From positions 32,001-96,000 of the forward strand of contig JBEKCB010000003.1 in assembly GCA_050015075.1 (NCBI GenBank): a DNA stretch of 64,000 nt, written 5' to 3'. The stretch comes from Candidatus Brocadiia bacterium. GTDB lineage: Bacteria; Planctomycetota; Brocadiia; CAIUPP01. Every line of letters starts with the position of its first letter. The stretch's first letter is position 1. The position numbers and the translations under genes are program-made. Shown here piece by piece: positions 3,327 through 23,218 of this stretch. The notes below the pieces were generated by a model, which saw only the letters and a list, made by a program, of their open reading frames with translations, was not told the origin of the DNA and made no database searches.

Positions 3327-4316
3327 CTACGCCAGGATACGATCAATCTGTTGCAGTTCCTCGGCGGCGAATTTGAGGTTCGCGAGGGCGCCGACGTTTT
3401 GCTCGATCTGGCTGACCTTGCTGGCGCCGACGAGGGCCGAGGTGACTTTGCCCCCGCGCAAGACCCACGCGAGCGCCATCTGCGCCAGGCTCTGCCCGCG
3501 CGCCTTGGCCAGCTTGTTGAGCTTGCGGATCTTCGCCAGCTTGTCTTTCGTGATCGCCGCCGGCTTCAGGAACCCGCTGGGCTTGGCCGCGCGGGAATCG
3601 GCGGGTATGCCGGCGAGATATCGGTCCGTCAACAGCCCCTGCGCCAGCGGACAGAACGCGATGGAGCCGATCCCTTCGCGCTGAAGGACGTCCTGGAGTC
3701 CTTCTTCGATCCATCGGCTGAACATGGAGTAACTGGGCTGATGGATGAGGCAGGGCGTGCCGAGAGACCGCATAATGCGCGCGGCCTCCGCGGTCTGCTC
3801 CGCGCTGTAGGAGGAGATGCCCGCGTAAAGGGCCTTGCCCCGGCGGACCGCGGCGTCGAGCGCGCCCATGGTTTCCTCCAACGGCGTGTTCGGATCGGGC
3901 CGATGCGAGTAGAAGATGTCCACGTACTCCAGCCCCATGCGCTGCAGGCTCTGGTCAAGGCTCGCCAGCAGGTATTTGCGCGAGCCCCACTCGCCGTAAG
4001 GCCCCGGCCACATCAGGTAGCCGGCCTTGGTCGAGACGATCAATTCGTCGCGGTGCGCCGCAAGGTCCTTCCGGAAGATCGCCCCGAAGTTCTCTTCCGC
4101 CGAACCCGGCGGCGGGCCGTAATTGTTGGCGAGGTCGAAGTGCGTGATGCCCAGGTCGAAGGCGCGGCGGACCATCGCGCGCTGGTTCTCGAGGGAGTCA
4201 ATGCCGCCGAAGTTATGCCACAGCCCGAGCGAGATGGCCGGCAGCGACAGGCCGCTCCGTCCGCAGCGGTTGTATTTCATCTTCGAATAACGGGACTCGA
4301 CGGGAGACCAGGTCAT
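3327..4316 (-). CDS. gpr: Aldo/keto reductase, L-glyceraldehyde 3-phosphate reductase (YghZ/Gpr type)
   Basis: GRSGLSLPAISLGLWHNFG, HFDLANNYGPPPGSAE, STKAGY.MWPGPYGEWGSRKY, YSHRPD. Confidence 0.9.
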   Translation of the reverse strand: MTWSPVESRYSKMKYNRCGRSGLSLPAISLGLWHNFGGIDSLENQRAMVRRAFDLGITHFDLANNYGPPPGSAEENFGAIFRKDLAAHRDELIVSTKAGYLMWPGPYGEWGSRKYLLASLDQSLQRMGLEYVDIFYSHRPDPNTPLEETMGALDAAVRRGKALYAGISSYSAEQTAEAARIMRSLGTPCLIHQPSYSMFSRWIEEGLQDVLQREGIGSIAFCPLAQGLLTDRYLAGIPADSRAAKPSGFLKPAAITKDKLAKIRKLNKLAKARGQSLAQMALAWVLRGGKVTSALVGASKVSQIEQNVGALANLKFAAEELQQIDRILA

Positions 4317-4421
4317 GGAGTTCCTTTCTCATCGAAACGGGAATTTCCCGGACGGTGCGGCGCCAATGCCACGGATAGTCTGACGACCGCGGCCGCCTCC
4401 GTCAAGCGCTTTTTCGGCGGC

Positions 4422-5705
4422 TTACCGGCCGGCTTCGGACTTCCGGCTGAGGCGAGTGACCCATTCAGGCGTCCATATGCCCTCCCAGCCGCTCGGATCG
4501 AAGTTGGCTTCAAAAATCTTCAGCAGCGTCGGGTCGTAGGGCGTCAAGGCGACCCAGAGCACCCCGGGCGGCACTTTCGGAGCGGGCTCTCTGTCGTCAA
4601 TCCGCTTGAATTTTGCGTCCTTGATTTGCTTGTTCCACATGAAGTCCCGGTTGGTGGCGATGAGGCGGGCGATGTCCTCTTTCGTGAAGACCAGGCCATG
4701 CTCGTACGCCGCCACGATCCCTTCCAGATCATCCGCGTAGTACCCGCCGTTCGGGTGCACGCCCACCCAGTGCTTGATCGAGCCGTCCGGGTTACGGTCC
4801 CACGGCACGTTCGCGTCCCAGTAGTTCCAGACGAAATACTTGCCGTCCTCCCGGAGTTTCATGTGAGACTTCATCGTCTGGAACCACTTCTCGGCCCGTT
4901 CGCGGTAAATCGGTTTGTGCGTCACGTCGTACATGGCGAGGATCCACTTGGTGATCTGGTTTTCCTTGTTCGCGGGCAGGGAGTTGCCGTCCGTGTTTCT
5001 TCTTTCATATCCGTCGAGTTCGGTCCATTGGCCGGTCTTCGGGTCAAGCCCGAAGGGCGGGACGACCCAGATGCCGCCTTCCTTCGTATCGCGCCAGGCG
5101 CCGCGCGAATTCCATTTATCGAACGTCCGCTCGGAAAGCCGGAGGTATTCCTCGGCCTTGGCGCCGTACTCTTTCTTCAGGGCCGGCGTCCTGAGAATCT
5201 CGCCGGCCATCATCACCAGCGGGCGAAGGAACATCGCATCGCACAGCTCGGTGTCCGTGTAGCGCTCCTTCATGCCGGGAGGAAGATACTCGAGGACGCC
5301 GTCGTCCTCTTCCTTGGGCCAGCCGATGTACCCGTCCGGCTCTTTGACGCCGCGCTTGATGACGGAGTCGGCCCAGTCTATCAGGTGGTCCACCCACTCG
5401 CGGTCGCCCGTGGCCATGTAGCCGTAGTAGAAGCCGTTCAGGAACGGAGTGACGGCCCAGCCGATGGACTCGCCCGTTTCCTTGTCGCAGTAGCGGTTCT
5501 TGCGGATCTCGCCGAGGATGTTCTGCTTCCAACGGCTCATCCATTCTTTTGCGAGCGCCGGATCCATGGTCGCTCTTCCCTGAACGGCCGCTCCTGTCGC
5601 CGCGTCCTTCGGCTGGCCCTGGGCGATGGAAAGGCCCGTCAGCAGTCCCATCCCGATCACCGCGAGCAATCCACGCGTCGCGCCGCCATGCAATCTCTGC
5701 GACAT
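4422..5705 (-). CDS. Secreted putative alpha/alpha-barrel (six-hairpin-like) protein, tandem paralog
   Basis: Signal-like N-terminus (GLLAVIGMGLLTGLSIAQG); long identical blocks with 5744-7015. Fold is inferred. Confidence 0.8.
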   Translation of the reverse strand: MSQRLHGGATRGLLAVIGMGLLTGLSIAQGQPKDAATGAAVQGRATMDPALAKEWMSRWKQNILGEIRKNRYCDKETGESIGWAVTPFLNGFYYGYMATGDREWVDHLIDWADSVIKRGVKEPDGYIGWPKEEDDGVLEYLPPGMKERYTDTELCDAMFLRPLVMMAGEILRTPALKKEYGAKAEEYLRLSERTFDKWNSRGAWRDTKEGGIWVVPPFGLDPKTGQWTELDGYERRNTDGNSLPANKENQITKWILAMYDVTHKPIYRERAEKWFQTMKSHMKLREDGKYFVWNYWDANVPWDRNPDGSIKHWVGVHPNGGYYADDLEGIVAAYEHGLVFTKEDIARLIATNRDFMWNKQIKDAKFKRIDDREPAPKVPPGVLWVALTPYDPTLLKIFEANFDPSGWEGIWTPEWVTRLSRKSEAGR

Positions 5706-5743
5706 ATTGGTCCTTTCAGAAGCGCCGCAAGGGCGACGATAAT

Positions 5744-7015
5744 TCACCGGCCGGCTTCAGCCTTTCGGCCGAAACGGGCGAGCCATTGAGGCGTGATGTT
5801 CAGGCCGCCCCAACTGGCCGGCTCGTGGTTGGCTTCAAAAACCTTTCGCAGCGTCGGGTCATAGGGCGCCAGGGCGACCCAGAGCATGCCCGGAGTCTTT
5901 GCCCATCGCGGGTCGGCCTTTTCGCCGTCAATCCGCTGGAATTTTGCATTCTTGATTTGCTGGTTCCACATGAAGTCCCGGTTCGTGGCGATGAGCCGCG
6001 CGATGTCCTCTTTCGTGAAGACCAGGCCGTGTTCGTATGCCGCGACGATCCCGTCCACGTCAATCGAGTAGTACCCGCCGTTCGGATGCACGCCCACCCA
6101 GTGCCGGGTGGTGCCGTCGGCCTTGTAATCCCACGGCCCGGCCGGGTCCCAGTAATCCCAGACGAAATACTTGCCGTTCTCCCGGAGCTTCATGCGGGAC
6201 TTCTGCACGCGCCACCATTTCTCGGCGCGTTCCCGGTAGATGGGTTTATGCGTCACGTCGTACATGGCGATCAGCCACAGGGCGACGAAGTTCTCCTTGT
6301 TGTCCGGCAGGGAAAAGCCGTCCGTGTTTCTGCGTTCATATCCGGCGGTCCACTTGCCGGTCTTCGGGTCAACCCCGAACGGCGGGACGACCCACAGGCC
6401 GCCTTCCTTCGTCTCGTGCCAGGCGCCGCGCGAATCCCATTTCTCGAACATTTTTTCGGAGAGCCGAAGGTATTCCTCGGCCTTGGCGCCGTACTCTTTC
6501 TTCAGGGCCGGAGTCTTGAGAATCTCGCCGGCCATCATCACGACGGGGCGGAAGAACATCGCCTCGCCCATCTCGCTGTCGGTGGGAGCCTCGGCGCCAT
6601 CGGCCTTCGGCCAGCCGACGTACCCGTCCGGCCCCTTCACGCCGCGCTTGATGACGGAGTCGGCCCAGTCTATCAGGTGGTCCACCCACATGCGGTCGCC
6701 CGTCGCCATGTAGCCATAGTAGAACCCGTTCAGCAACGGCCAGCCGACGAGGTCTCCGATCTGCTCGCCCATTTCCCGATCGCAAGTGCGGTCGCGGGTC
6801 TCGCCGAGGATGTTCTGCTTCCAACGCCGCATCCACTCGCTGGCGAGCGCCGGGTCCATGCTCGGTCCTGCCTGAGCGGCCAGTCCCGTCGTCTCGTCCT
6901 TCGTCTGGCCCTGGGCGATGGAAAGGCACGACGGAAGAATCCACGCGATCAGCAGTCCCATCCCGGCCGCCGCAAGCAATCCGCGCGTCGCGCCGCCATG
7001 CGATCTGTGTGACAT
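5744..7015 (-). CDS. Secreted putative alpha/alpha-barrel protein, tandem paralog
   Basis: Signal-like N-terminus; shares GFYYGYMATGD, DWADSVIKRGVK, HWVGVHPNGGYY, AAYEHGLVFTKEDIARLIATNRDFMWN with its neighbour. Confidence 0.8.
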   Translation of the reverse strand: MSHRSHGGATRGLLAAAGMGLLIAWILPSCLSIAQGQTKDETTGLAAQAGPSMDPALASEWMRRWKQNILGETRDRTCDREMGEQIGDLVGWPLLNGFYYGYMATGDRMWVDHLIDWADSVIKRGVKGPDGYVGWPKADGAEAPTDSEMGEAMFFRPVVMMAGEILKTPALKKEYGAKAEEYLRLSEKMFEKWDSRGAWHETKEGGLWVVPPFGVDPKTGKWTAGYERRNTDGFSLPDNKENFVALWLIAMYDVTHKPIYRERAEKWWRVQKSRMKLRENGKYFVWDYWDPAGPWDYKADGTTRHWVGVHPNGGYYSIDVDGIVAAYEHGLVFTKEDIARLIATNRDFMWNQQIKNAKFQRIDGEKADPRWAKTPGMLWVALAPYDPTLRKVFEANHEPASWGGLNITPQWLARFGRKAEAGR

Positions 7016-7148
7016 ATCGGCCCTTTCAAAAGCGCTGCAAGGACGATGGCCTGCGGTCAGGCGCCCGATGTCATATTCTGACGACCGAAGTCATCCCCGT
7101 CAAGGAACCTTCGCAGATCGGCATGCTAAGACTGTTCCCGCAATTGAT

Positions 7149-15956: not shown

Positions 15957-17219
15957 CTACTCGCGGACTTGCCCATCGCCATAGACGACATATTTGTAGC
16001 TGGTCAGCTCCGGGAGCGCCATGGGGCCGCGGGCGTGGAGCTTGTCGGTGCTGATGCCGATCTCGGCGCCCATGCCGAACTGCGCGCCGTCGTTGAAGCG
16101 GGTGCTCGTGTTGATGAAGACGGCGGCGGAGTCCACGCGCGCGGCGAACTCGCGCGCGCTCGCCAGGTCGCGCGTGAGGATCGCGTCGCTGTGCTGCGTG
16201 CCGTAGCGCGCGATGTGGCGGACCGCCTCGTCGAGCGAATCCACGACGCGGATCGAGAGGATCAGGTCGTTGTACTCGGTCGCCCAGTCCTCCTCGGTCG
16301 CGGGCTTCATCGCCTTGACGATGGCGCGCGAGCGCGCGTCGCCGCGCATCTCGCAGCCGGCCTTTTTCAGCTTCGCCGCGATGCGCGGCAGGAACTCCTT
16401 CGCGACGGCGGCGTGGACGAGCATCGTCTCCATCGCATTGCAGACCGACGGCCGCTGCAGTTTCGCGTTCAGGCAGACCTTTTCCGCCATTGCCAGGTCC
16501 GCGGAGGCGTCCACGTAGGTATGGCAGACGCCCTTGTAATGCTTGAGGACGGGGATGCGCGACTTCTCGGCCACGGCGCGGATGAGCCCTTCGCCGCCGC
16601 GCGGGATGACGACGTCAATCTTCCCCTCGGCGCGGAGCAGCAGGTCGAGCGCGGCGCGGTCGGGCGTGTTCACCATTTGAACGGAATGCGGGTCGAGGCC
16701 GGCCTCGGAGATCGCCCCGGCGAGCGCCGCGTGGATCGCCAGGTTGCTCCGGAGAGCCTCCTTGCCGCCGCGCAGGATGACGGCGTTGCCGCTCTTGAGG
16801 CAGAGGGCGGCGGCGTCGGCGGTGACGTTCGGGCGCGCCTCGTAGATCATCAGGATGATGCCGAGCGGCACGCGGATTTTCTCGATGCGCAGCCCGTTGG
16901 GCCGGGTCCAGCCGGCGATCAGCTCGCCGACGGGGTCGCGCAGCGCGGCGACCTGGCGCAGCCCGCCGGCCATCTCGGCGATGCGTTCGCGGGTCAGCCG
17001 GAGCCGGTCCAGCATGGCGGGCTTGATCCGGTCGTCACGGCGGGCGGCATCGAGATCCTTCCTGTTTGCGGCAATGATCGCGGGGGTTCGGCGGACCAGC
17101 GCTTCCGCGGCATTCAGCAGCACGGCGTCCTTCGCCGCGGTGGAGGCCACGGCCAGCGAAGCGGCCGCCTCGCGCGCCTGCGAGACCAACTGCCAGACGT
17201 ATTTTTCAAGTTCGGCCAT
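15957..17219 (-). CDS. proA: Gamma-glutamyl phosphate reductase
   Basis: IYEARPNVT, LKSGNAVILRGG, IPRGGEGLI, CNAMET, GAEIGISTDKLHARGP. Confidence 0.96.
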   Translation of the reverse strand: MAELEKYVWQLVSQAREAAASLAVASTAAKDAVLLNAAEALVRRTPAIIAANRKDLDAARRDDRIKPAMLDRLRLTRERIAEMAGGLRQVAALRDPVGELIAGWTRPNGLRIEKIRVPLGIILMIYEARPNVTADAAALCLKSGNAVILRGGKEALRSNLAIHAALAGAISEAGLDPHSVQMVNTPDRAALDLLLRAEGKIDVVIPRGGEGLIRAVAEKSRIPVLKHYKGVCHTYVDASADLAMAEKVCLNAKLQRPSVCNAMETMLVHAAVAKEFLPRIAAKLKKAGCEMRGDARSRAIVKAMKPATEEDWATEYNDLILSIRVVDSLDEAVRHIARYGTQHSDAILTRDLASAREFAARVDSAAVFINTSTRFNDGAQFGMGAEIGISTDKLHARGPMALPELTSYKYVVYGDGQVRE

Positions 17220-17259
17220 CGCTCTTCCGCCCATCCATGCTTCGTGGTTCGCAAATGAC

Positions 17260-17291
17260 ACAGCATGACGAGCTTGCGCCCGTCATGCTGT
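17260..17291. terminator. Perfect 11-bp intergenic hairpin (possible terminator or processing stem)
   Basis: acagcatgacg-N10-cgtcatgctgt between the oxidoreductase gene and proA; no clear U-tract. Confidence 0.4.
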
Positions 17292-17331: not shown

Positions 17332-18435
17332 TCAAATGCGGCAAACGGCGGCTTTCGATTTCACGCTCTTGTAAATCTGCGGATTCTGCCGCTGGCATTC
17401 CTCGATCACGGCAATCTGGCGCCGGACCTGCTGGGGCGTGATCTCCAGCGGCTTACCCGCGCTGAGCGTGCGGTACAGCCCGGCATAGAACTCGCCGGCC
17501 ATGCCGCCGTACAAGTCCGCCTGGGCCGGCGGCACTTCCCATTTGTCGGTGTGCCACTTGAGCGCCTCCGAGACGTAGGCGGGCAGGCCTTCCGCGTTGA
17601 CGATCGGCGTGCGAATGAGCTTCTGCTTCGGCGCCTCGCTGAGCTTGAAGTACCGCCACTCGGCCGCGCCGGTCGTCGCCTTCATGCCGCCGCGCGTGCC
17701 CTGGACGACGTACGCCGGGCCCGGATACGCCTGGCACGAGGAGATCTCGAGGTCCACCACCGGGTTCTTCGGCCCGCTGAGGATGAGCTTGACGTAGTCC
17801 TCCGCGTCGCCGAACGTGTTCGCGCGGTCCATGAAGCAGGTGACGCGCGGCATGCCCTCGCCGAACAGCACCAGCGCCTGGTCGAGCGGGTGCGGGCCGG
17901 TGTTGAGGAGGTTGCCGCCGTTGTTCTCCTGCAGCGTCTGCCAGTCCCACCGCCGCGCGAAGCCGCTCATGGCCGTGGAGATCTGCACGATCCGCCCGAG
18001 CACGCCGGACTTGATGACTTTCTGGACCTGGCGGAAATACGGGGCGTAGCGCGACTGCTGGAAGATCGCGAGCAGCTTGCCGGACTTCTTGGATGCCGCG
18101 ATCAATTTGTCCACGTCGGCCGCGGTCCGCGCGAGCGGCTTCTCGCAGAGGACGTTGAAGCCGGCCTTGAGGAACTCCAGCGACACCAGCACGTGCAGGT
18201 GGCTGGGCGTGGTGTTGATGACCAGGTCGAGGTCCTTGCGCTTGAGCAGTTCGCGGTAATCGGCGTATACGTCGCAGCCGTACTCCTGCGCCGCGCGCTG
18301 CCGCCGCTCCTCCAGCGGGTCGGAGACCGCGACGATGCGGTAATGCTGCTCGTCCTTGACCTTAAGCAGGTGCGCGCCGTGAATGCCGCGCCCGCTGCGG
18401 CCCTGACCGATGATGGCGACACGGATCGTCTTCAT
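17332..18435 (-). CDS. Gfo/Idh/MocA family oxidoreductase
   Basis: IIGQGRSG Rossmann motif, TPSHLH, VLCEKP, GGNLLNTGPH.LDQ. Confidence 0.9.
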   Translation of the reverse strand: MKTIRVAIIGQGRSGRGIHGAHLLKVKDEQHYRIVAVSDPLEERRQRAAQEYGCDVYADYRELLKRKDLDLVINTTPSHLHVLVSLEFLKAGFNVLCEKPLARTAADVDKLIAASKKSGKLLAIFQQSRYAPYFRQVQKVIKSGVLGRIVQISTAMSGFARRWDWQTLQENNGGNLLNTGPHPLDQALVLFGEGMPRVTCFMDRANTFGDAEDYVKLILSGPKNPVVDLEISSCQAYPGPAYVVQGTRGGMKATTGAAEWRYFKLSEAPKQKLIRTPIVNAEGLPAYVSEALKWHTDKWEVPPAQADLYGGMAGEFYAGLYRTLSAGKPLEITPQQVRRQIAVIEECQRQNPQIYKSVKSKAAVCRI

Positions 18436-18514
18436 TCTCTCTCCTTTGCCTCGATGGTCCTGCACCCTTGAGCACTCACGTCCGGCCGGCGGGAAAGTTC
18501 GTGCCAGCGGCGAT

Positions 18515-19789
18515 TCACTTCGGACTCTGCGGCGGCGGCGCCCGCGGACCGGCATCGGCCTCCTCTTCCTTGACGATCGCAGGGATCGCCTTCCAGCCCA
18601 GCCGCTCGCAGGCGAGCAGCCGGAACCGGCCCGCGACGAGGGTGAACCGGCCGTCCGCCGCCCGCTGCACGAGCACCGGCTGCAAGAGCCCCATCTGCTT
18701 GATCCGCTCGGCCAGCTCGGCGATGTAGTTCGGGTCCGCCGGCCTCAGCGGCACGTTGGCCTCCGGGTCGTCAATGCTTTCCATCGCGACCTCAGTCGCC
18801 GCGTCCGGCCCGGCGGCGCGCGCGCTGGCCTGCATGCTCTTGCGATAGGAGTAAACGTAGGGAATGGCGAAGTCCACGCGCGGGTCGCGCTGGAAATCGC
18901 GGAAGACCTGCTTGAGGATCTCGTGCGCGATGCGCGGGCGGTCCCACGCCGGCGTCATGTACCGCAGCCGCATGTACACGCCGTAGTCGTAGATGTCGGA
19001 GCGGATGTACGGTTCCTTGCCGGTCTGCCGGATGATGTCGCTGGTGACGCTCCGCGCCGCGTCGAGCAGGATCTTCTCGGCGATGTCCCAGTCCGAATCG
19101 AACGTCAGCCGGATGATCACCTCGTCGAGGAAGTACGGCGCCAGTTGCTTGGGCGTATAGTTGATCGCCGCCTGGCTGAAAAGCATCGCATTCGGGATGA
19201 GGATGCTCCGCCCGATCGCTTCCTCCGAGCCGATCGAGCCGCCGACCTGGTTGAGCCGGGTGTACATGAAGCCGACGTCGAGCACGTCGCCGAGGAGGCC
19301 GAGCGACGGGAAAAGGACGCGGTCGCCGATGCGGAACGGCCGCGTGATCGCCACGAGCGCCCAGGCTGCGACGCCGCTGACCGGCGACTGCAGCGACCAG
19401 CCGAGGATCGAGCCGCCGAACAGCGCGGCCAGCCCGCCGAGTTTCCCGAGTTCGCCAGTGGTGTAGATCACGGTGAAGATGACGCCGAGGACCACCAGGA
19501 CGCGGACGAGGCCGGTGAGCATCATGACTTCGCCGGGCGAGCCGTCTCGAGCGCGGATGAGGAACTGAATCGCGAGCGCGACGACCTCGTAGCCGACCGC
19601 GACCAGGAACACGATGTGGAGGAAGGCGGCGCCGCTGGTCCCGGCCGAGATGTGGCCGAGCGGCATGTCGTGGTTGTCCATCCAGTACGCCGTCGAGGCG
19701 AGCACCGCGAAGATCGCCAGCAGCCCGGCGTGGACCCAGGGTTTGAGTTTGACTTCGCCGGTGGTGGTGATCGGCGTGCGTTCGCTCAT
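18515..19789 (-). CDS. MscS-family mechanosensitive channel with C-terminal ParB/Srx-like domain
   Basis: TM helices followed by PFRIGDRV, GDVLDVGFMYTRL, IPNAMLF (MscS). C-terminal IAELAERIKQMGLLQPVLV...FTLVAGRFRLLACERLGWKAIPAIV (ParB N-terminal domain). Confidence 0.88.
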   Translation of the reverse strand: MSERTPITTTGEVKLKPWVHAGLLAIFAVLASTAYWMDNHDMPLGHISAGTSGAAFLHIVFLVAVGYEVVALAIQFLIRARDGSPGEVMMLTGLVRVLVVLGVIFTVIYTTGELGKLGGLAALFGGSILGWSLQSPVSGVAAWALVAITRPFRIGDRVLFPSLGLLGDVLDVGFMYTRLNQVGGSIGSEEAIGRSILIPNAMLFSQAAINYTPKQLAPYFLDEVIIRLTFDSDWDIAEKILLDAARSVTSDIIRQTGKEPYIRSDIYDYGVYMRLRYMTPAWDRPRIAHEILKQVFRDFQRDPRVDFAIPYVYSYRKSMQASARAAGPDAATEVAMESIDDPEANVPLRPADPNYIAELAERIKQMGLLQPVLVQRAADGRFTLVAGRFRLLACERLGWKAIPAIVKEEEADAGPRAPPPQSPK

Positions 19790-19921
19790 TTCCCCGAATC
19801 CTCAGGAGATGCGCCGTGCGCCCCTGTCCCGCCGTCGGCGGGGCGGTTCGGTGACATTGTACATAAGCACATGGGCGCTTGCAACATCCTGACGCCGCGA
19901 GCGCCGCTCCTCGCAGGGGCG

Positions 19922-21178
19922 TCAGCTCGGAGTCGCGCGAACCGGTCCGCGCGGCTGCAGGGCGGCCGTTGCGGGCGCCGCCAACTGTATTCCGTTTTCA
20001 TCGTAGCTCAACGTGCGATACGGTCCTTCGGCGGCGGGCATCCGGCCCATCGCCAGGCGGAACGTGCGGCGCTCCGGCGCGGCGATCAGGGCTTGCAGGC
20101 TGTTCGGCAAATGGATGCGCGGGTCGGCGAGAATATTCGTCCGCAGCCCGATCGTGCCGGGGCGCTCGCGCAGCCGGGCCATCAACGTCGCGTAGCGGCC
20201 CGAGCCGCGAGGAGCCTGAAGCTCGGCCGGCCGGCCGAGCTTGCGGAAGTGGTTCGTCGCGGCGATGAAGTCGTCGCCGGGCGCCGCCTCGCGTACGACG
20301 ACCTCGTCGGCGGTGTACTCGGCCACGACTGAGCGGCGCGCCGGCGCGGTTTGCGCGAGGAGGATATTGTTGGAGTACGTCCGCCGCGTAGCGCGGAGCA
20401 GCGCGACCGCCTCGTCGCAGGTCGCCGCCTCCTGCGCCATCTGGCGGAAGCTGATGACGTACGGCATTCCTTCGAGGTTCGCGGAGATGCGCTTCACGTT
20501 CAGCGGGCCGATGCAGAGACCGGCCAGGTTCACCGCCGTAATCGCGCCGCACCAGCCCGGCCAGGCGATGGAGACGAACGGGATGCCGCCGTCCGGCTTG
20601 CAGAAGATGATCAGCCCGCACCGCTGCGCGATGCCCATGCTGACGAAGTCCAGGTTCCGGCCGAAGATCAACTCGCCGCCCGTTCGATCATGCTCAGGGC
20701 GAACGCGCGTGGCGGCCCCATGCGCGGCGAAGCAGGAGCACTGCACCGCCTGGACGCTTTCAAGAAACGTGTGCGCGATGAGGATATCGTCGTACGTCAT
20801 GGCGGCGCCGTCGGCCAGGCCGCGCATCTCCTCGAGGTACGGCGCGGGCATGTGCGGCTCGAGCCGCCGCCCGCGCCGGAGCAGTTCGGCCCGGCTCAGC
20901 GCGCGGAACAGGCGGATCATCCGGATGTATTCCTCGAAGACCCGCTGCACCACCGGCCGCAGCAGCCGCCCGTGCTGCAGGCCCATCTCGCGCGGCGAGC
21001 CTTCGATGTGCAGGAATCGCCAGCCGCCGCGCACCGCCAGCCGCCCGCGCCCTTCCGTCCAGTCGCCATCCGCCGGAGTCGGGAACTGCGACCGCGCGCA
21101 GGTGAGGCCCGCCGTCAGCGCGAACGCGCTCTCCATCGCGCCGATCACCAGGCGATGCCAGCTAGATCTGTTCAGCAT
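19922..21178 (-). CDS. C45 family Ntn-hydrolase (autoproteolytic acyltransferase/peptidase)
   Basis: GSPREMGLQHG, EEMRGLADG, Q-CSCFA nucleophile, FGRNLDF, ATNHF. Confidence 0.85.
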   Translation of the reverse strand: MLNRSSWHRLVIGAMESAFALTAGLTCARSQFPTPADGDWTEGRGRLAVRGGWRFLHIEGSPREMGLQHGRLLRPVVQRVFEEYIRMIRLFRALSRAELLRRGRRLEPHMPAPYLEEMRGLADGAAMTYDDILIAHTFLESVQAVQCSCFAAHGAATRVRPEHDRTGGELIFGRNLDFVSMGIAQRCGLIIFCKPDGGIPFVSIAWPGWCGAITAVNLAGLCIGPLNVKRISANLEGMPYVISFRQMAQEAATCDEAVALLRATRRTYSNNILLAQTAPARRSVVAEYTADEVVVREAAPGDDFIAATNHFRKLGRPAELQAPRGSGRYATLMARLRERPGTIGLRTNILADPRIHLPNSLQALIAAPERRTFRLAMGRMPAAEGPYRTLSYDENGIQLAAPATAALQPRGPVRATPS

Positions 21179-21304
21179 GACGTCGAAAAATTCCTTGGAT
21201 GCGACAATAGACCGTGAACGATCTTGTTATTCTACCTTCGCGTCATTGCAGTTGTCACCCGCCGCGACGTAGAATGCCGCGGTCAGGAAACAGGGGGCTG
21301 GGTT

Positions 21305-22330
21305 ATGCCCAAAATCCGGTGCACGTGCAAACGCGTTATCTCTTATGGGCCCGGACTGGCCGGCAAGCTTGTGAAATGTCCGGGATGCTCCGCAAAAATC
21401 CGTCTGCCGGAGATCGAGCCGGCCGCGCCGCCGGCGCGCGCCGCGCCCAGTCAAGAGCAGGATCTGCAACTCGAGAGGGAAGAGACGGACGTCCCGCTCG
21501 CGTCGAGTTTGCAAACTTCGGACGCCACGGGGCCGTCCGGCAATTCGCTTCCGCCGTATGAGCCGCCGTCCTGGGCCGCAGCCCGCCGCTCCGCTCCTGC
21601 GACTTCAGATCGGGGCGCAGCGGCCGAGGATTACTGGAGCGCGCTGCCCGGCGCGTTCGAGTTCCCGCTTAAGGGCGACGGGCTCATCGCGCTGATCGTG
21701 GGCGTCATCTTCCTCACCGCGGAGCATTACCTCATGTTCATGGCGGCGCTTTTTCCATTGCTGGGCCTCGTCCTCGCGGGCGGCATCGGCATCATCGGCA
21801 CCGGCTATTTCGCCGGATACCTGATGACGATCATGGAGCGCACCGCGCACGGCGAGAAGGACGCGCCCGGTTGGCCGGACCTGAACGACTGGCAGGAGAA
21901 TGCGCTGCAGCCGTTCGTCTTCCTTCTCGCGCTCAGCATCCTCTGCATCGGCCCGTGGGTCGCGTACGCGCGCTTCGCGCACGAACCGAACGTGGCGATC
22001 ACCTACGCGCTCCTCGCCGCGGGCCTGTTCTACATGCCGATGGGCATGCTGTGCGTTGCCCTGGTGAACAACTACGCCGGTCTCAACCCGGTCCTGGTCA
22101 TCCGCGCCATCCGCAGCGTGCCCGGCCGGTACTCCGTCGTCTGGGCGCTCGTTATATTTTGCATCGCCGCGCAGACGATGGGTGCCGGATTGATCGCCGC
22201 GCTACCGATTCCCATCGTCGGAACGATCCTGGAGGAGGCCGTCAGTTGCTACTTCCTGTTCGTCGCCGCGCGGGTCCTGGGGCTGCTCTATCACAAATCG
22301 AGCCGGCAGTTGGACTGGCTGGCGGGATAG
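21305..22330 (+). CDS. Zinc-ribbon plus DUF4013-like multi-TM membrane protein
   Basis: N-terminal C.C...CPGC; AFEFPL, GYL..IM...AHGE..APGWPD; several TM helices. Confidence 0.65.
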   Translation: MPKIRCTCKRVISYGPGLAGKLVKCPGCSAKIRLPEIEPAAPPARAAPSQEQDLQLEREETDVPLASSLQTSDATGPSGNSLPPYEPPSWAAARRSAPATSDRGAAAEDYWSALPGAFEFPLKGDGLIALIVGVIFLTAEHYLMFMAALFPLLGLVLAGGIGIIGTGYFAGYLMTIMERTAHGEKDAPGWPDLNDWQENALQPFVFLLALSILCIGPWVAYARFAHEPNVAITYALLAAGLFYMPMGMLCVALVNNYAGLNPVLVIRAIRSVPGRYSVVWALVIFCIAAQTMGAGLIAALPIPIVGTILEEAVSCYFLFVAARVLGLLYHKSSRQLDWLAG

Positions 22331-22387: not shown

Positions 22388-23218
22388 ATGAGGCTCGGGG
22401 GTCCTGTTGCGTACGCCGGCGATCCGGAAGCATGGGCGGCCGAAGCGCGCCGGCGCGGTTACTCCGCGGTCTATTTCCCGTCGGCAGACGCGGACGACTC
22501 CGCGGTCGCGGCCATCGTGAAATCCGCCGAGGCGGCCGGGCTGGTCATCGCCGAAGTCGGCGCGTGGGGCAATCCGCTCAGCCCGGACGAGGCCGTGCGC
22601 AGCGCCGCGCTGGAGAAGTGCCGCGCGCAACTCGCCCTGGCCGACCGCGCCGGCGCGCGCTGCTGCGTCAACATCGCCGGCTCGCGCGGCGTGAAATGGG
22701 ACGGCCCGCACGCGGACGACCTGACCGAGGCGACGTTCGACCTGGTCGTGGAATCCGTGCGCTCGATCCTTGACGCCGTCAAACCGACGCGCACGTTCTA
22801 CACGCTCGAGCCGATGCCGTGGATGTACCCGGATTCCGCCGAGAGTTACCTGCGCCTCCTCCGCGCGGTCGGCCGCAAACAATTCGGCGTCCACCTCGAC
22901 CTGGTTAACCTCGTCTGCAGCCCGCAGCTTTACTTCGGCAATGCGGCGCTCATCCGCGACTGCTTCGCGAAGCTCGGCCCCCACGTCCGCAGTTGCCACG
23001 CGAAGGACATCCTGCTCGGCGGGGAGCTGACCGTGCACTTGAGCGAGGTGCGGCCGGGCCTCGGCGCGCTCGATTACGCCGTCCTGCTCCAGGAACTGGA
23101 CCGACTCGAGCCTGATATGCCGCTGATGCTCGAGCATCTGAAAACCGACGAGGAGTATCGCCTCGCCGCGGACTACGTCCGGTCAGTGGCGCGGCGGACG
23201 GGAGTCCAGTTCCGATAA
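22388..23218 (+). CDS. Sugar phosphate isomerase/epimerase (xylose-isomerase-like TIM barrel)
   Basis: LEPMP, VHLD.VN, CHAKD, PG.G.LDY, MLEH metal-binding pattern. Confidence 0.88.
   Translation: MRLGGPVAYAGDPEAWAAEARRRGYSAVYFPSADADDSAVAAIVKSAEAAGLVIAEVGAWGNPLSPDEAVRSAALEKCRAQLALADRAGARCCVNIAGSRGVKWDGPHADDLTEATFDLVVESVRSILDAVKPTRTFYTLEPMPWMYPDSAESYLRLLRAVGRKQFGVHLDLVNLVCSPQLYFGNAALIRDCFAKLGPHVRSCHAKDILLGGELTVHLSEVRPGLGALDYAVLLQELDRLEPDMPLMLEHLKTDEEYRLAADYVRSVARRTGVQFR

Follow-up and report, generated by a model that had tools for sequence, protein, structure and literature searches.

We describe a gene at positions 18515..19789 (minus strand) of a 64,000-nucleotide stretch of contig JBEKCB010000003.1 from a Candidatus Brocadiia bacterium (GenBank assembly GCA_050015075.1; the whole stretch is called the window below) that encodes, in one polypeptide, a four-transmembrane MscS channel core, a flexible linker (about 22 residues) that evolves fast, a minimal ParB/sulfiredoxin (Srx) fold of 77 residues and a short disordered end. 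The gene is an intact open reading frame (ORF) with an ATG start and a product of 424 amino acids (aa). Two Pfam domains score above their cut-offs: MS_channel_2nd (PF00924) covers aa 136-212 and reaches 33.9 bits (cut-off 20.2), and ParB_N (PF02195; model positions 14-81 of 95) covers aa 343-410 and reaches 48.3 bits (cut-off 26.3, E 1e-12). In NCBIfam, an MscS subfamily model matches aa 56-300 and the noc and parB models match aa 342-410, all of them under the full-length cut-offs, as expected for a domain. Both Pfam matches are much stronger than chance would give, and hundreds of independent sequences share the architecture; the observation is confirmed. A first-pass annotation of the stretch had proposed an MscS core joined to a ParB N-domain and lacking a helix-turn-helix (HTH), and had quoted the strings IAELAERIKQMGLLQPVLV, LVAGRFRLLA and IPAIV. 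All three strings are present in the translation, both domain identities are borne out by Pfam and NCBIfam, and no HTH family in Pfam matches the 424-aa protein at E ≤ 0.1. Neither does any Pfam family for a C-terminal dimerization domain at this threshold, and the sequence leaves no room for one, the protein ending 14 residues past IPAIVKEE.

The channel part is colinear with Escherichia coli MscS (PDB 2vv5, 2oau) in its pore-lining helix, beta-domain and alpha/beta cage domain, as judged by phmmer (MscS residues 35-271 of 286 align with aa 57-310, E 2e-10) and by the AlphaFold2 model of the full-length protein. The latter is a monomer model whose membrane part is indicative only (mean predicted local distance difference test score, pLDDT, 71.3; predicted TM-score, pTM, 0.38), with helices at aa 17-39, 53-80 and 85-110 and a pore-lining pair at aa 114-132 and 137-149; pLDDT is 80-93 at aa 21-80 and lower for the pore helices. 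The beta-domain then precedes the cage elements, which are helices at aa 234-256 and 281-301 and strand segments at aa 261-280 and 307-309. Compared with E. coli MscS, to which its identity is low, the protein has one extra N-terminal helix in the model and, where MscS ends, carries the linker and the ParB-fold domain. The latter appears as a compact domain at aa 332-407, and pLDDT falls below 50 in the linker (aa 310-328) and in the C-terminal end (aa 411-424). Conservation follows the same division: the beta-domain block QVGGxxGSE...LIPNAMLF is invariant in 25 aligned homologues, the linker (aa 310-331) has no conserved columns in the homologue alignment, and the C-terminal end (aa 409-424) is variable or missing in homologues. 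PF21082, a cage-region family, is matched in archaeal relatives, and base composition is even along the gene.

Modeled alone from a 47-row alignment (A2) cut from the related loci described below, the tail reaches a pLDDT of 88.3 and a pTM of 0.72, with the element order beta-alpha-beta-beta-alpha-beta. A Foldseek search of the PDB with this model returned 58 matches at E ≤ 1e-3, of which the listed top ones are all ParB/Srx-fold proteins, led by Noc (7nfu, E 2e-8), ParB with CTPgammaS (7bm8, 7bnr), PadC, KorB and Arabidopsis thaliana Srx. The plant protein (6ky4) has the best target coverage, with a TM-score of 0.78 and a root-mean-square deviation of 1.8 Å over 79 columns of an 89-residue chain. 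A tail profile run against PDB sequences finds Noc (E 3e-23), Myxococcus xanthus ParB (1.5e-17), Bacillus subtilis ParB (2.7e-16) and plant Srx (1e-7), with further matches to SbnI, KorB and SerK. The tail model and Foldseek therefore agree that the C-terminus folds as a ParB N-domain or Srx, as had been anticipated. The nearest ESM Atlas entries, ParB_N-only clusters of 81-84 aa (scores 0.91-0.92), are a lead only.

The fusion is found across many sources. Among 8000 candidates scored we identified 770 homologous proteins at E ≤ 1e-3, and both PF00924 and PF02195 are present in 112 of the 120 best. In seven of the others PF00924 stands alone; six of these are proteins of 490-527 aa, and the seventh is a 349-aa fragment from a 1.1-kb contig. 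The last, a 251-aa fragment, has PF02195 alone. Automatic annotation in the sources names the members either "ParB N-terminal domain-containing protein" or "small-conductance mechanosensitive channel." In a species-level genome collection, for which we counted the best 80 of 183 stretches encoding a relative, an ORF and hidden Markov model (HMM) script found a closed ORF with core and tail in 71 loci; the gene runs past the contig end in six, and three hold the core alone. According to record titles and tree labels, the fusion occurs in Planctomycetota, Chloroflexota, Verrucomicrobiota, Lentisphaerota, Bacillota, Armatimonadota, Latescibacterota, Gemmatimonadota and Handelsmanbacteria, and also in two archaeal metagenome-assembled genomes (MAGs). 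Five loci have longer fused ORFs (L038 at 3415..7119, L041 at 5134..7119, L083, L014 and L034, with 1234, 661, 608, 545 and 519 aa, respectively), which may be real N-terminal extensions or merely an open upstream frame in GC-rich DNA.

These counts bear directly on whether the gene might be an artefact, either of chimeric assembly or of a frameshift that joined two genes. Against this stand the recurrence of the architecture in the best homologues from many sources and in loci from different MAGs, a 424-aa homologue with 94% identity (P0001/L006) in another MAG, and the purifying selection on the tail reported below. The stretch itself is present in at least 24 sequencing runs from peat metagenomes, 14 of which contain at least half of the sampled words, and four runs are a possible source of the assembly. 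Contigs of two runs not flagged as source (X5 and X6) cover all 30 bins, and each run contributes a 131-nt piece (18731-18861) that spans the core-tail junction with zero differences and no reported joints. Because the homologues, the loci and the X5 and X6 contigs carry the junction, a chimeric assembly is excluded, and an artefact of any kind has next to no probability. Both doubts that accompanied the first-pass annotation, a chimera and a want of independent homologues carrying the fusion, are thereby settled. In an RNA run, a single 201-nt contig lies over the tail with eight differences, which is too little to claim expression.

Conservation within the tail is concentrated in a few positions. 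Across 72 tails (the window and the 71 loci), the Box I motif GLLQP is kept at G367 (69/72), L368 (69/72), Q370 (69/72) and P371 (72/72), and the Box II remnant at G387 (72/72), R390 (68/72, with three Q and one K), A393 (69/72) and C394 (70/72), followed by L397 (72/72) and W399 (71/72). The two residues between the glycine and the arginine vary freely, giving 40 different octamers, in which GHxR is commonest and the window has GRFR. The departure of Box II from the canonical GERRxRA, already remarked on from the window alone, is general: GERR occurs in 0/72 tails, and a cysteine at position 2 of GxxR likewise in 0/72. Every tail stops a few residues beyond IPAIV, none of the 72 reaches Box III, and the column of the QPR stretch is not conserved. 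The canonical ParB of the same genome (L001, 290 aa) has QPR before Box I, GERRLRAA, ENLQREDL, and HTH and C-terminal regions; by BLASTP, tail residues 37-86 align with its residues 55-103 only, at 40% identity.

In canonical ParB, Box III, QPR and the full GERRxRA help to bind the triphosphate and Mg, and Box III, GERR and QPR are required for hydrolysis and N-engagement. Noc and the N-domain of chromosomal ParB (7ol9, 7nfu, 7bnk, 6sdk, 7bm8) are the best sequence (E 3e-23 to 1e-14) and fold matches of the tail and share GxLQP, GxxR and LGW..IPAI with it, but the tail stops before Box III and has no GERR, QPR, HTH or C-terminal dimerization domain. With all of these absent, a canonical CTP-hydrolyzing clamp is, to judge from the sequences, unlikely.

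The tail is a separable module, because tail-less relatives end in the linker and archaeal relatives carry another extension in its place. Three tail-less loci stop 15-20 residues beyond the last conserved strand, inside the linker, and a six-frame HMM search of them finds no tail remnant in any frame (all E > 3). Six archaeal-type relatives of 490-527 aa (P0047, P0055, P0063, P0069, P0081 and P0086), named Thermoproteota or Bathyarchaeia by their sources, have a core identity of 46-53% and an extension of about 200 aa instead of the ParB tail; the extension ends in a zinc ribbon (sub-threshold in Pfam) in four of the six, P0055 and P0086 having none, and five of the six have a second partial beta-domain stretch. 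A quick maximum-likelihood tree of the core (81 rows, rooted at the midpoint only) groups the tail-less rows in one clade (SH-aLRT 96) and those with a zinc ribbon in another (SH-aLRT 100), both among fused clades; phyla are intermixed, and the two archaeal fused loci nest among bacterial ones. This fits a modular tail that has been lost or replaced, together with lateral spread, on a tree whose root is not established.

Selection separates the same parts. In our own Nei-Gojobori script, applied to one pair (the window gene and L006) with small counts, the ratio of non-synonymous to synonymous substitution rates (dN/dS) is 0.056 for the core (28 synonymous to 5 non-synonymous changes) and 0.14 for the tail (13 to 6), and about 1.3 for both the linker (2 to 8) and the C-terminal end (2 to 7). 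In a class-level sample of 61 genomes, 13 have a match at E ≤ 1e-60; in eight the match extends through the tail, in five it is limited to the core, and one well-assembled family has 0/22. A class-level relative of the fused gene (G114:C14:122416-123621) has one in-frame TAG within the match, which may reflect a pseudogene or a sequencing error. A library clustered at 50% identity yields 97 representatives at E ≤ 1e-30; among the 150 matches listed, the best stretch of 22 reaches profile position 396 or beyond, that is, the tail, and for many proteins of 290-350 aa the match is confined to the core.

We tentatively favor, at slightly less than even confidence, a reading in which the tail is a regulatory module that binds a ligand without hydrolyzing it and thereby biases gating or recruits a partner, much as in bCNG channels. 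By analogy with the heptameric architecture of MscS, seven tails would hang on flexible tethers below the base of the cage, each a regulatory appendage rather than a CTP-hydrolyzing DNA clamp. The tail retains the two elements of the pocket with which the fold would hold a nucleotide, GxLQP of Box I and the GxxR arginine of Box II; since these are kept but Box III, QPR and everything downstream are lost, binding without turnover would be expected. Like members of the fold that are of sulfiredoxin size, the tail may thus take up a nucleotide or some other phosphorylated ligand, and binding would shift its placement under the cage and so bias gating, desensitization or partner recruitment. Sulfiredoxin provides a precedent in that its fold of about 90 aa holds a nucleotide without Box III (ATP complexes 3cyi, 3hy2). 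In a survey of ParB-fold proteins, 11 of 28 purified proteins bound a nucleoside triphosphate (NTP), with CTP, ATP or GTP as possible ligands, genuine single-domain forms of about 100 aa exist, and diverse fusions no longer bound an NTP once alanine replaced the GxxR arginine (Kaljevic et al. 2025, PMC12704722).

Several observations weigh against this proposal. The tail lacks the full GERRxRA as well as Box III and the QPR stretch, 4/72 tails are without even the GxxR arginine, and the tail-less relatives show that the core of the channel can do without a tail. No conserved neighbor gene that would point to a pathway was found among 74 loci. The same survey reports that the other 17 of the 28 purified proteins bound no NTP in vitro and that NTP specificity is not predictable from sequence or AlphaFold3 (PMC12704722). 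The parallel with Staphylococcus aureus described below is a lead, not evidence, its ParB-like protein being at most a putative homologue of the tail; and no MscS ORF (core HMM, E ≤ 0.01) was found within about 4 kb of six small ParB loci of a third paralogue in a Bacillota-type phylum sample.

The absence of most canonical phosphate-binding residues also lends itself to another explanation, in which the tail is a degenerate, ligand-free ParB fold serving only protein-protein contact or self-association, for example to cluster channels, to plug or cap the base of the cage, or to dock a partner. The conserved GLLQP, G..R..AC, LGW and IPA are largely elements of the fold core that canonical ParB and Noc also keep, and many ParB-fold proteins bound no NTP in vitro (PMC12704722). 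However, retention of the GxxR arginine in nearly all tails while its neighbors vary freely is the pattern of a functional pocket residue, and no conserved partner gene lies nearby; we regard the ligand-free alternative as doubtful rather than improbable. The first-pass annotation had instead inclined to an NTP switch, and its idea survives in part: Box I and the GxxR arginine are indeed kept, but there is no Box III in any of the 72 tails, no QPR and nothing to clamp with. Its own caveat, that the domain may bind without hydrolyzing, is the stronger part of the proposal.

In its full form, a genuine CTP switch would have the tails bind, hydrolyze and dimerize like ParB N-domains, opening, closing or relocating the channel in cycles. 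The nearest relatives in sequence and fold, Noc and ParB, are CTP-dependent, and Box I and GxxR are kept. All 72 proteins, however, end before Box III (ENLQRE in the genome's own ParB), GERR is absent and the QPR column is not conserved, which makes such a switch improbable. A two-copy prediction of the tail complex (alignment A2) scored 0.00 against a mark of 0.42 and, made with no controls, is evidence neither way. Sulfiredoxin (A. thaliana 6ky4; human 3cyi, 1xw3), which equals the tail in minimal fold size and is its best target-normalized structural match, raises a different possibility, namely a redox enzyme or thiol sensor acting on the channel through the near-invariant Cys394. The catalytic cysteine of Srx sits inside GxxR, as G-C-H-R, and no tail has a cysteine there; unlike Srx, the tail is also tethered to a channel. 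Cys394 instead lies four residues past the arginine in a helix, at a position held by a small residue in canonical ParB and Noc, which fits a packing role, and a sulfiredoxin-like function is very improbable.

A possible natural counterpart of the fusion comes from S. aureus. According to a May 2026 preprint (10.64898/2026.05.29.728642), SAUSA300_0361, encoding a ParB-like protein (ParBL), and SAUSA300_0362 (mscS) form one co-regulated locus; inducing parBL or mscS by itself had little effect, and their co-induction lowered the oxacillin minimal inhibitory concentration 4- to 32-fold and decreased K+ and cyclic di-AMP (c-di-AMP). There too a ParB-like protein and an MscS channel are linked in function, but each has a gene of its own, and the K+, c-di-AMP and oxacillin phenotype requires both; the annotation of ParBL is that of a putative regulator. 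The gene pair may be a two-gene form of the coupling that we propose for the fusion, and if ParBL is related to the tail, fusion and operon would support each other.

A search for split forms among proteins shorter than 233 aa that contain the tail region gave four matches, three on contigs of about 1 kb, which are likely fragments, and one of 103 aa on a 16.7-kb contig. The tail profile finds 42 matches at E ≤ 1e-5 among 821 candidates of 47-184 aa; the best are on short contigs, and long contigs hold a few proteins of 82-154 aa that stand alone and have 40-45% identity over part of the tail. It would go considerably further to suppose that the tail senses nucleotides and in this way sets the threshold at which an MscS channel gates, or its inactivation, making this the first ion channel under a ParB-CTPase fold, that ParBL and MscS of S. 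aureus are its split form, and that ParB-fold proteins are a widespread and so far unrecognized class of regulators coupling nucleotide state to the release of K+ and osmolytes. We consider this wider proposal quite unlikely as a whole, though well short of far-fetched.

Table 1. Location of the fused gene, its parts and a candidate promoter in the window
Feature	Position	Strand	Basis or remark
Whole gene, MscS core + ParB-fold tail	18515..19789	-	ORF list, Pfam, 94%-identical homologue; stop codon 18515-18517
Membrane part, aa 17-149	19343..19741	-	AlphaFold2 full-length model and HMMER alignment to E. coli MscS
MscS beta-domain, aa 136-212	19154..19384	-	PF00924, E 3.5e-8
Alpha/beta cage domain of MscS with the final conserved strand, aa 234-309 (...VDFAIPYVYSYRK)	18863..19090	-	Model, MscS alignment
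Linker, aa 310-331	18797..18862	-	Low confidence, poorly conserved, length variable
Minimal ParB/Srx-fold tail, aa 332-408	18566..18796	-	PF02195, profile, model, Foldseek
Box I / C-motif GLLQP, aa 367-371	18677..18691	-	Counts over 72 tails
Box II remnant GRFRLLAC, aa 387-394	18608..18631	-	GxxR arginine and near-invariant Cys
Disordered Pro/Glu-rich C-terminal end, aa 409-424	18518..18565	-	Site where ParB would run on into Box III
Sigma-70-like promoter match TTGCAA-17-TACAAT	19856..19884	-	67 nt upstream of ATG; consensus scan

The promoter match of Table 1 is a pattern match only (one found, 0.2 expected in shuffled sequences), and no terminator-like site was found after the gene on its own strand. 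The commonest neighbor families among the 74 loci occur at 13 loci (ABC-exporter-like, named by eye) and 10 loci (GFO/IDH/MocA); both were rejected as conserved operon partners, their side, strand and distance being mixed. In the window, a GFO/IDH/MocA oxidoreductase (17332..18555, minus strand, likely true start near 18435) lies directly downstream on the same strand, its listed ORF overlapping the channel gene only via an upstream in-frame ATG; members of this family within 5 kb account for the 10 related loci, on mixed sides. Directly upstream, also on the same strand, is a 418-aa AAT/peptidase-C45-like protein (19922..21178, minus strand; PF03417, E 3e-9), whose adjacency to the fusion is not conserved at other loci. 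Further out are a 368-aa membrane protein (21224..22330, plus strand) with an N-terminal CxC...CxxC zinc-ribbon-like stretch and a match to DUF4013 that stays below threshold (22.9 bits, cut-off 26.9), a xylose-isomerase-like TIM-barrel protein (22388..23218, plus strand) and an aldehyde-dehydrogenase-family protein (15957..17261, minus strand) that by eye resembles gamma-glutamyl phosphate reductase.

Elsewhere in the same genome, PF00924 occurs in a single further gene (C21) and ParB_N in four; besides the canonical ParB (C1), these are three non-canonical genes at C63:1877-2134, C2:241521-241748 and C17:33303-33548 of genome G000, in open frames of 559, 478 and 477 aa. At one related locus, in an Anaerolineae MAG (L019), an ordinary MscS-like ORF of 301 aa (4712..5617, plus strand; 89 bits to the core HMM) begins 27 nt downstream of the fused gene.

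Among known channels, the bCNG class resembles the fusion in having an MscS core with a nucleotide-type binding domain at its cytoplasmic C-terminus, but the resemblance is one of design only: the window tail has a ParB/Srx fold and not one that binds cyclic nucleoside monophosphates (no such family matches the protein in Pfam), the ligand, if any, is different, and so are the taxa. A 2026 review describes bCNG as an MscS-like class with a C-terminal nucleotide-binding domain, no structure and no established role, calls the specialized roles of MscS-like channels poorly explored, and in the part searched mentions neither ParB nor any non-bCNG MscS-like channel with a C-terminal nucleotide-binding domain (PMC13591265). 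The survey of ParB-fold proteins contains no mechanosensitive channel, MscS or transmembrane term in its main text and no MscS or PF00924 in its supplementary text, though its figures and other datasets could still list the architecture (PMC12704722). Our search of the literature on mechanosensitive channels and ParB found no description of an MscS-ParB fusion, in agreement with the original proposal, which knew of none; among the titles listed, the S. aureus preprint alone was pertinent.

The confirmed fusion thus adds to the MscS-like channels a variant that is undescribed in the literature searched. For the channel field, the point of comparison is bCNG, the only MscS-like class with a C-terminal nucleotide-binding domain named in the part of the review searched (PMC13591265). 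For the ParB field, in which many fusions are reported to employ the ParB-CTPase fold anew, with specificity for CTP, ATP or GTP (PMC12704722), a fusion to an ion channel would be the first link to membrane transport. The tail is small and separable, offers one obvious point mutant (R390A) and has natural tail-less relatives as controls, so that its role is directly testable. If ParBL and MscS of S. aureus prove to be its split form, the finding would also bear on how envelope stress alters K+ and c-di-AMP levels.

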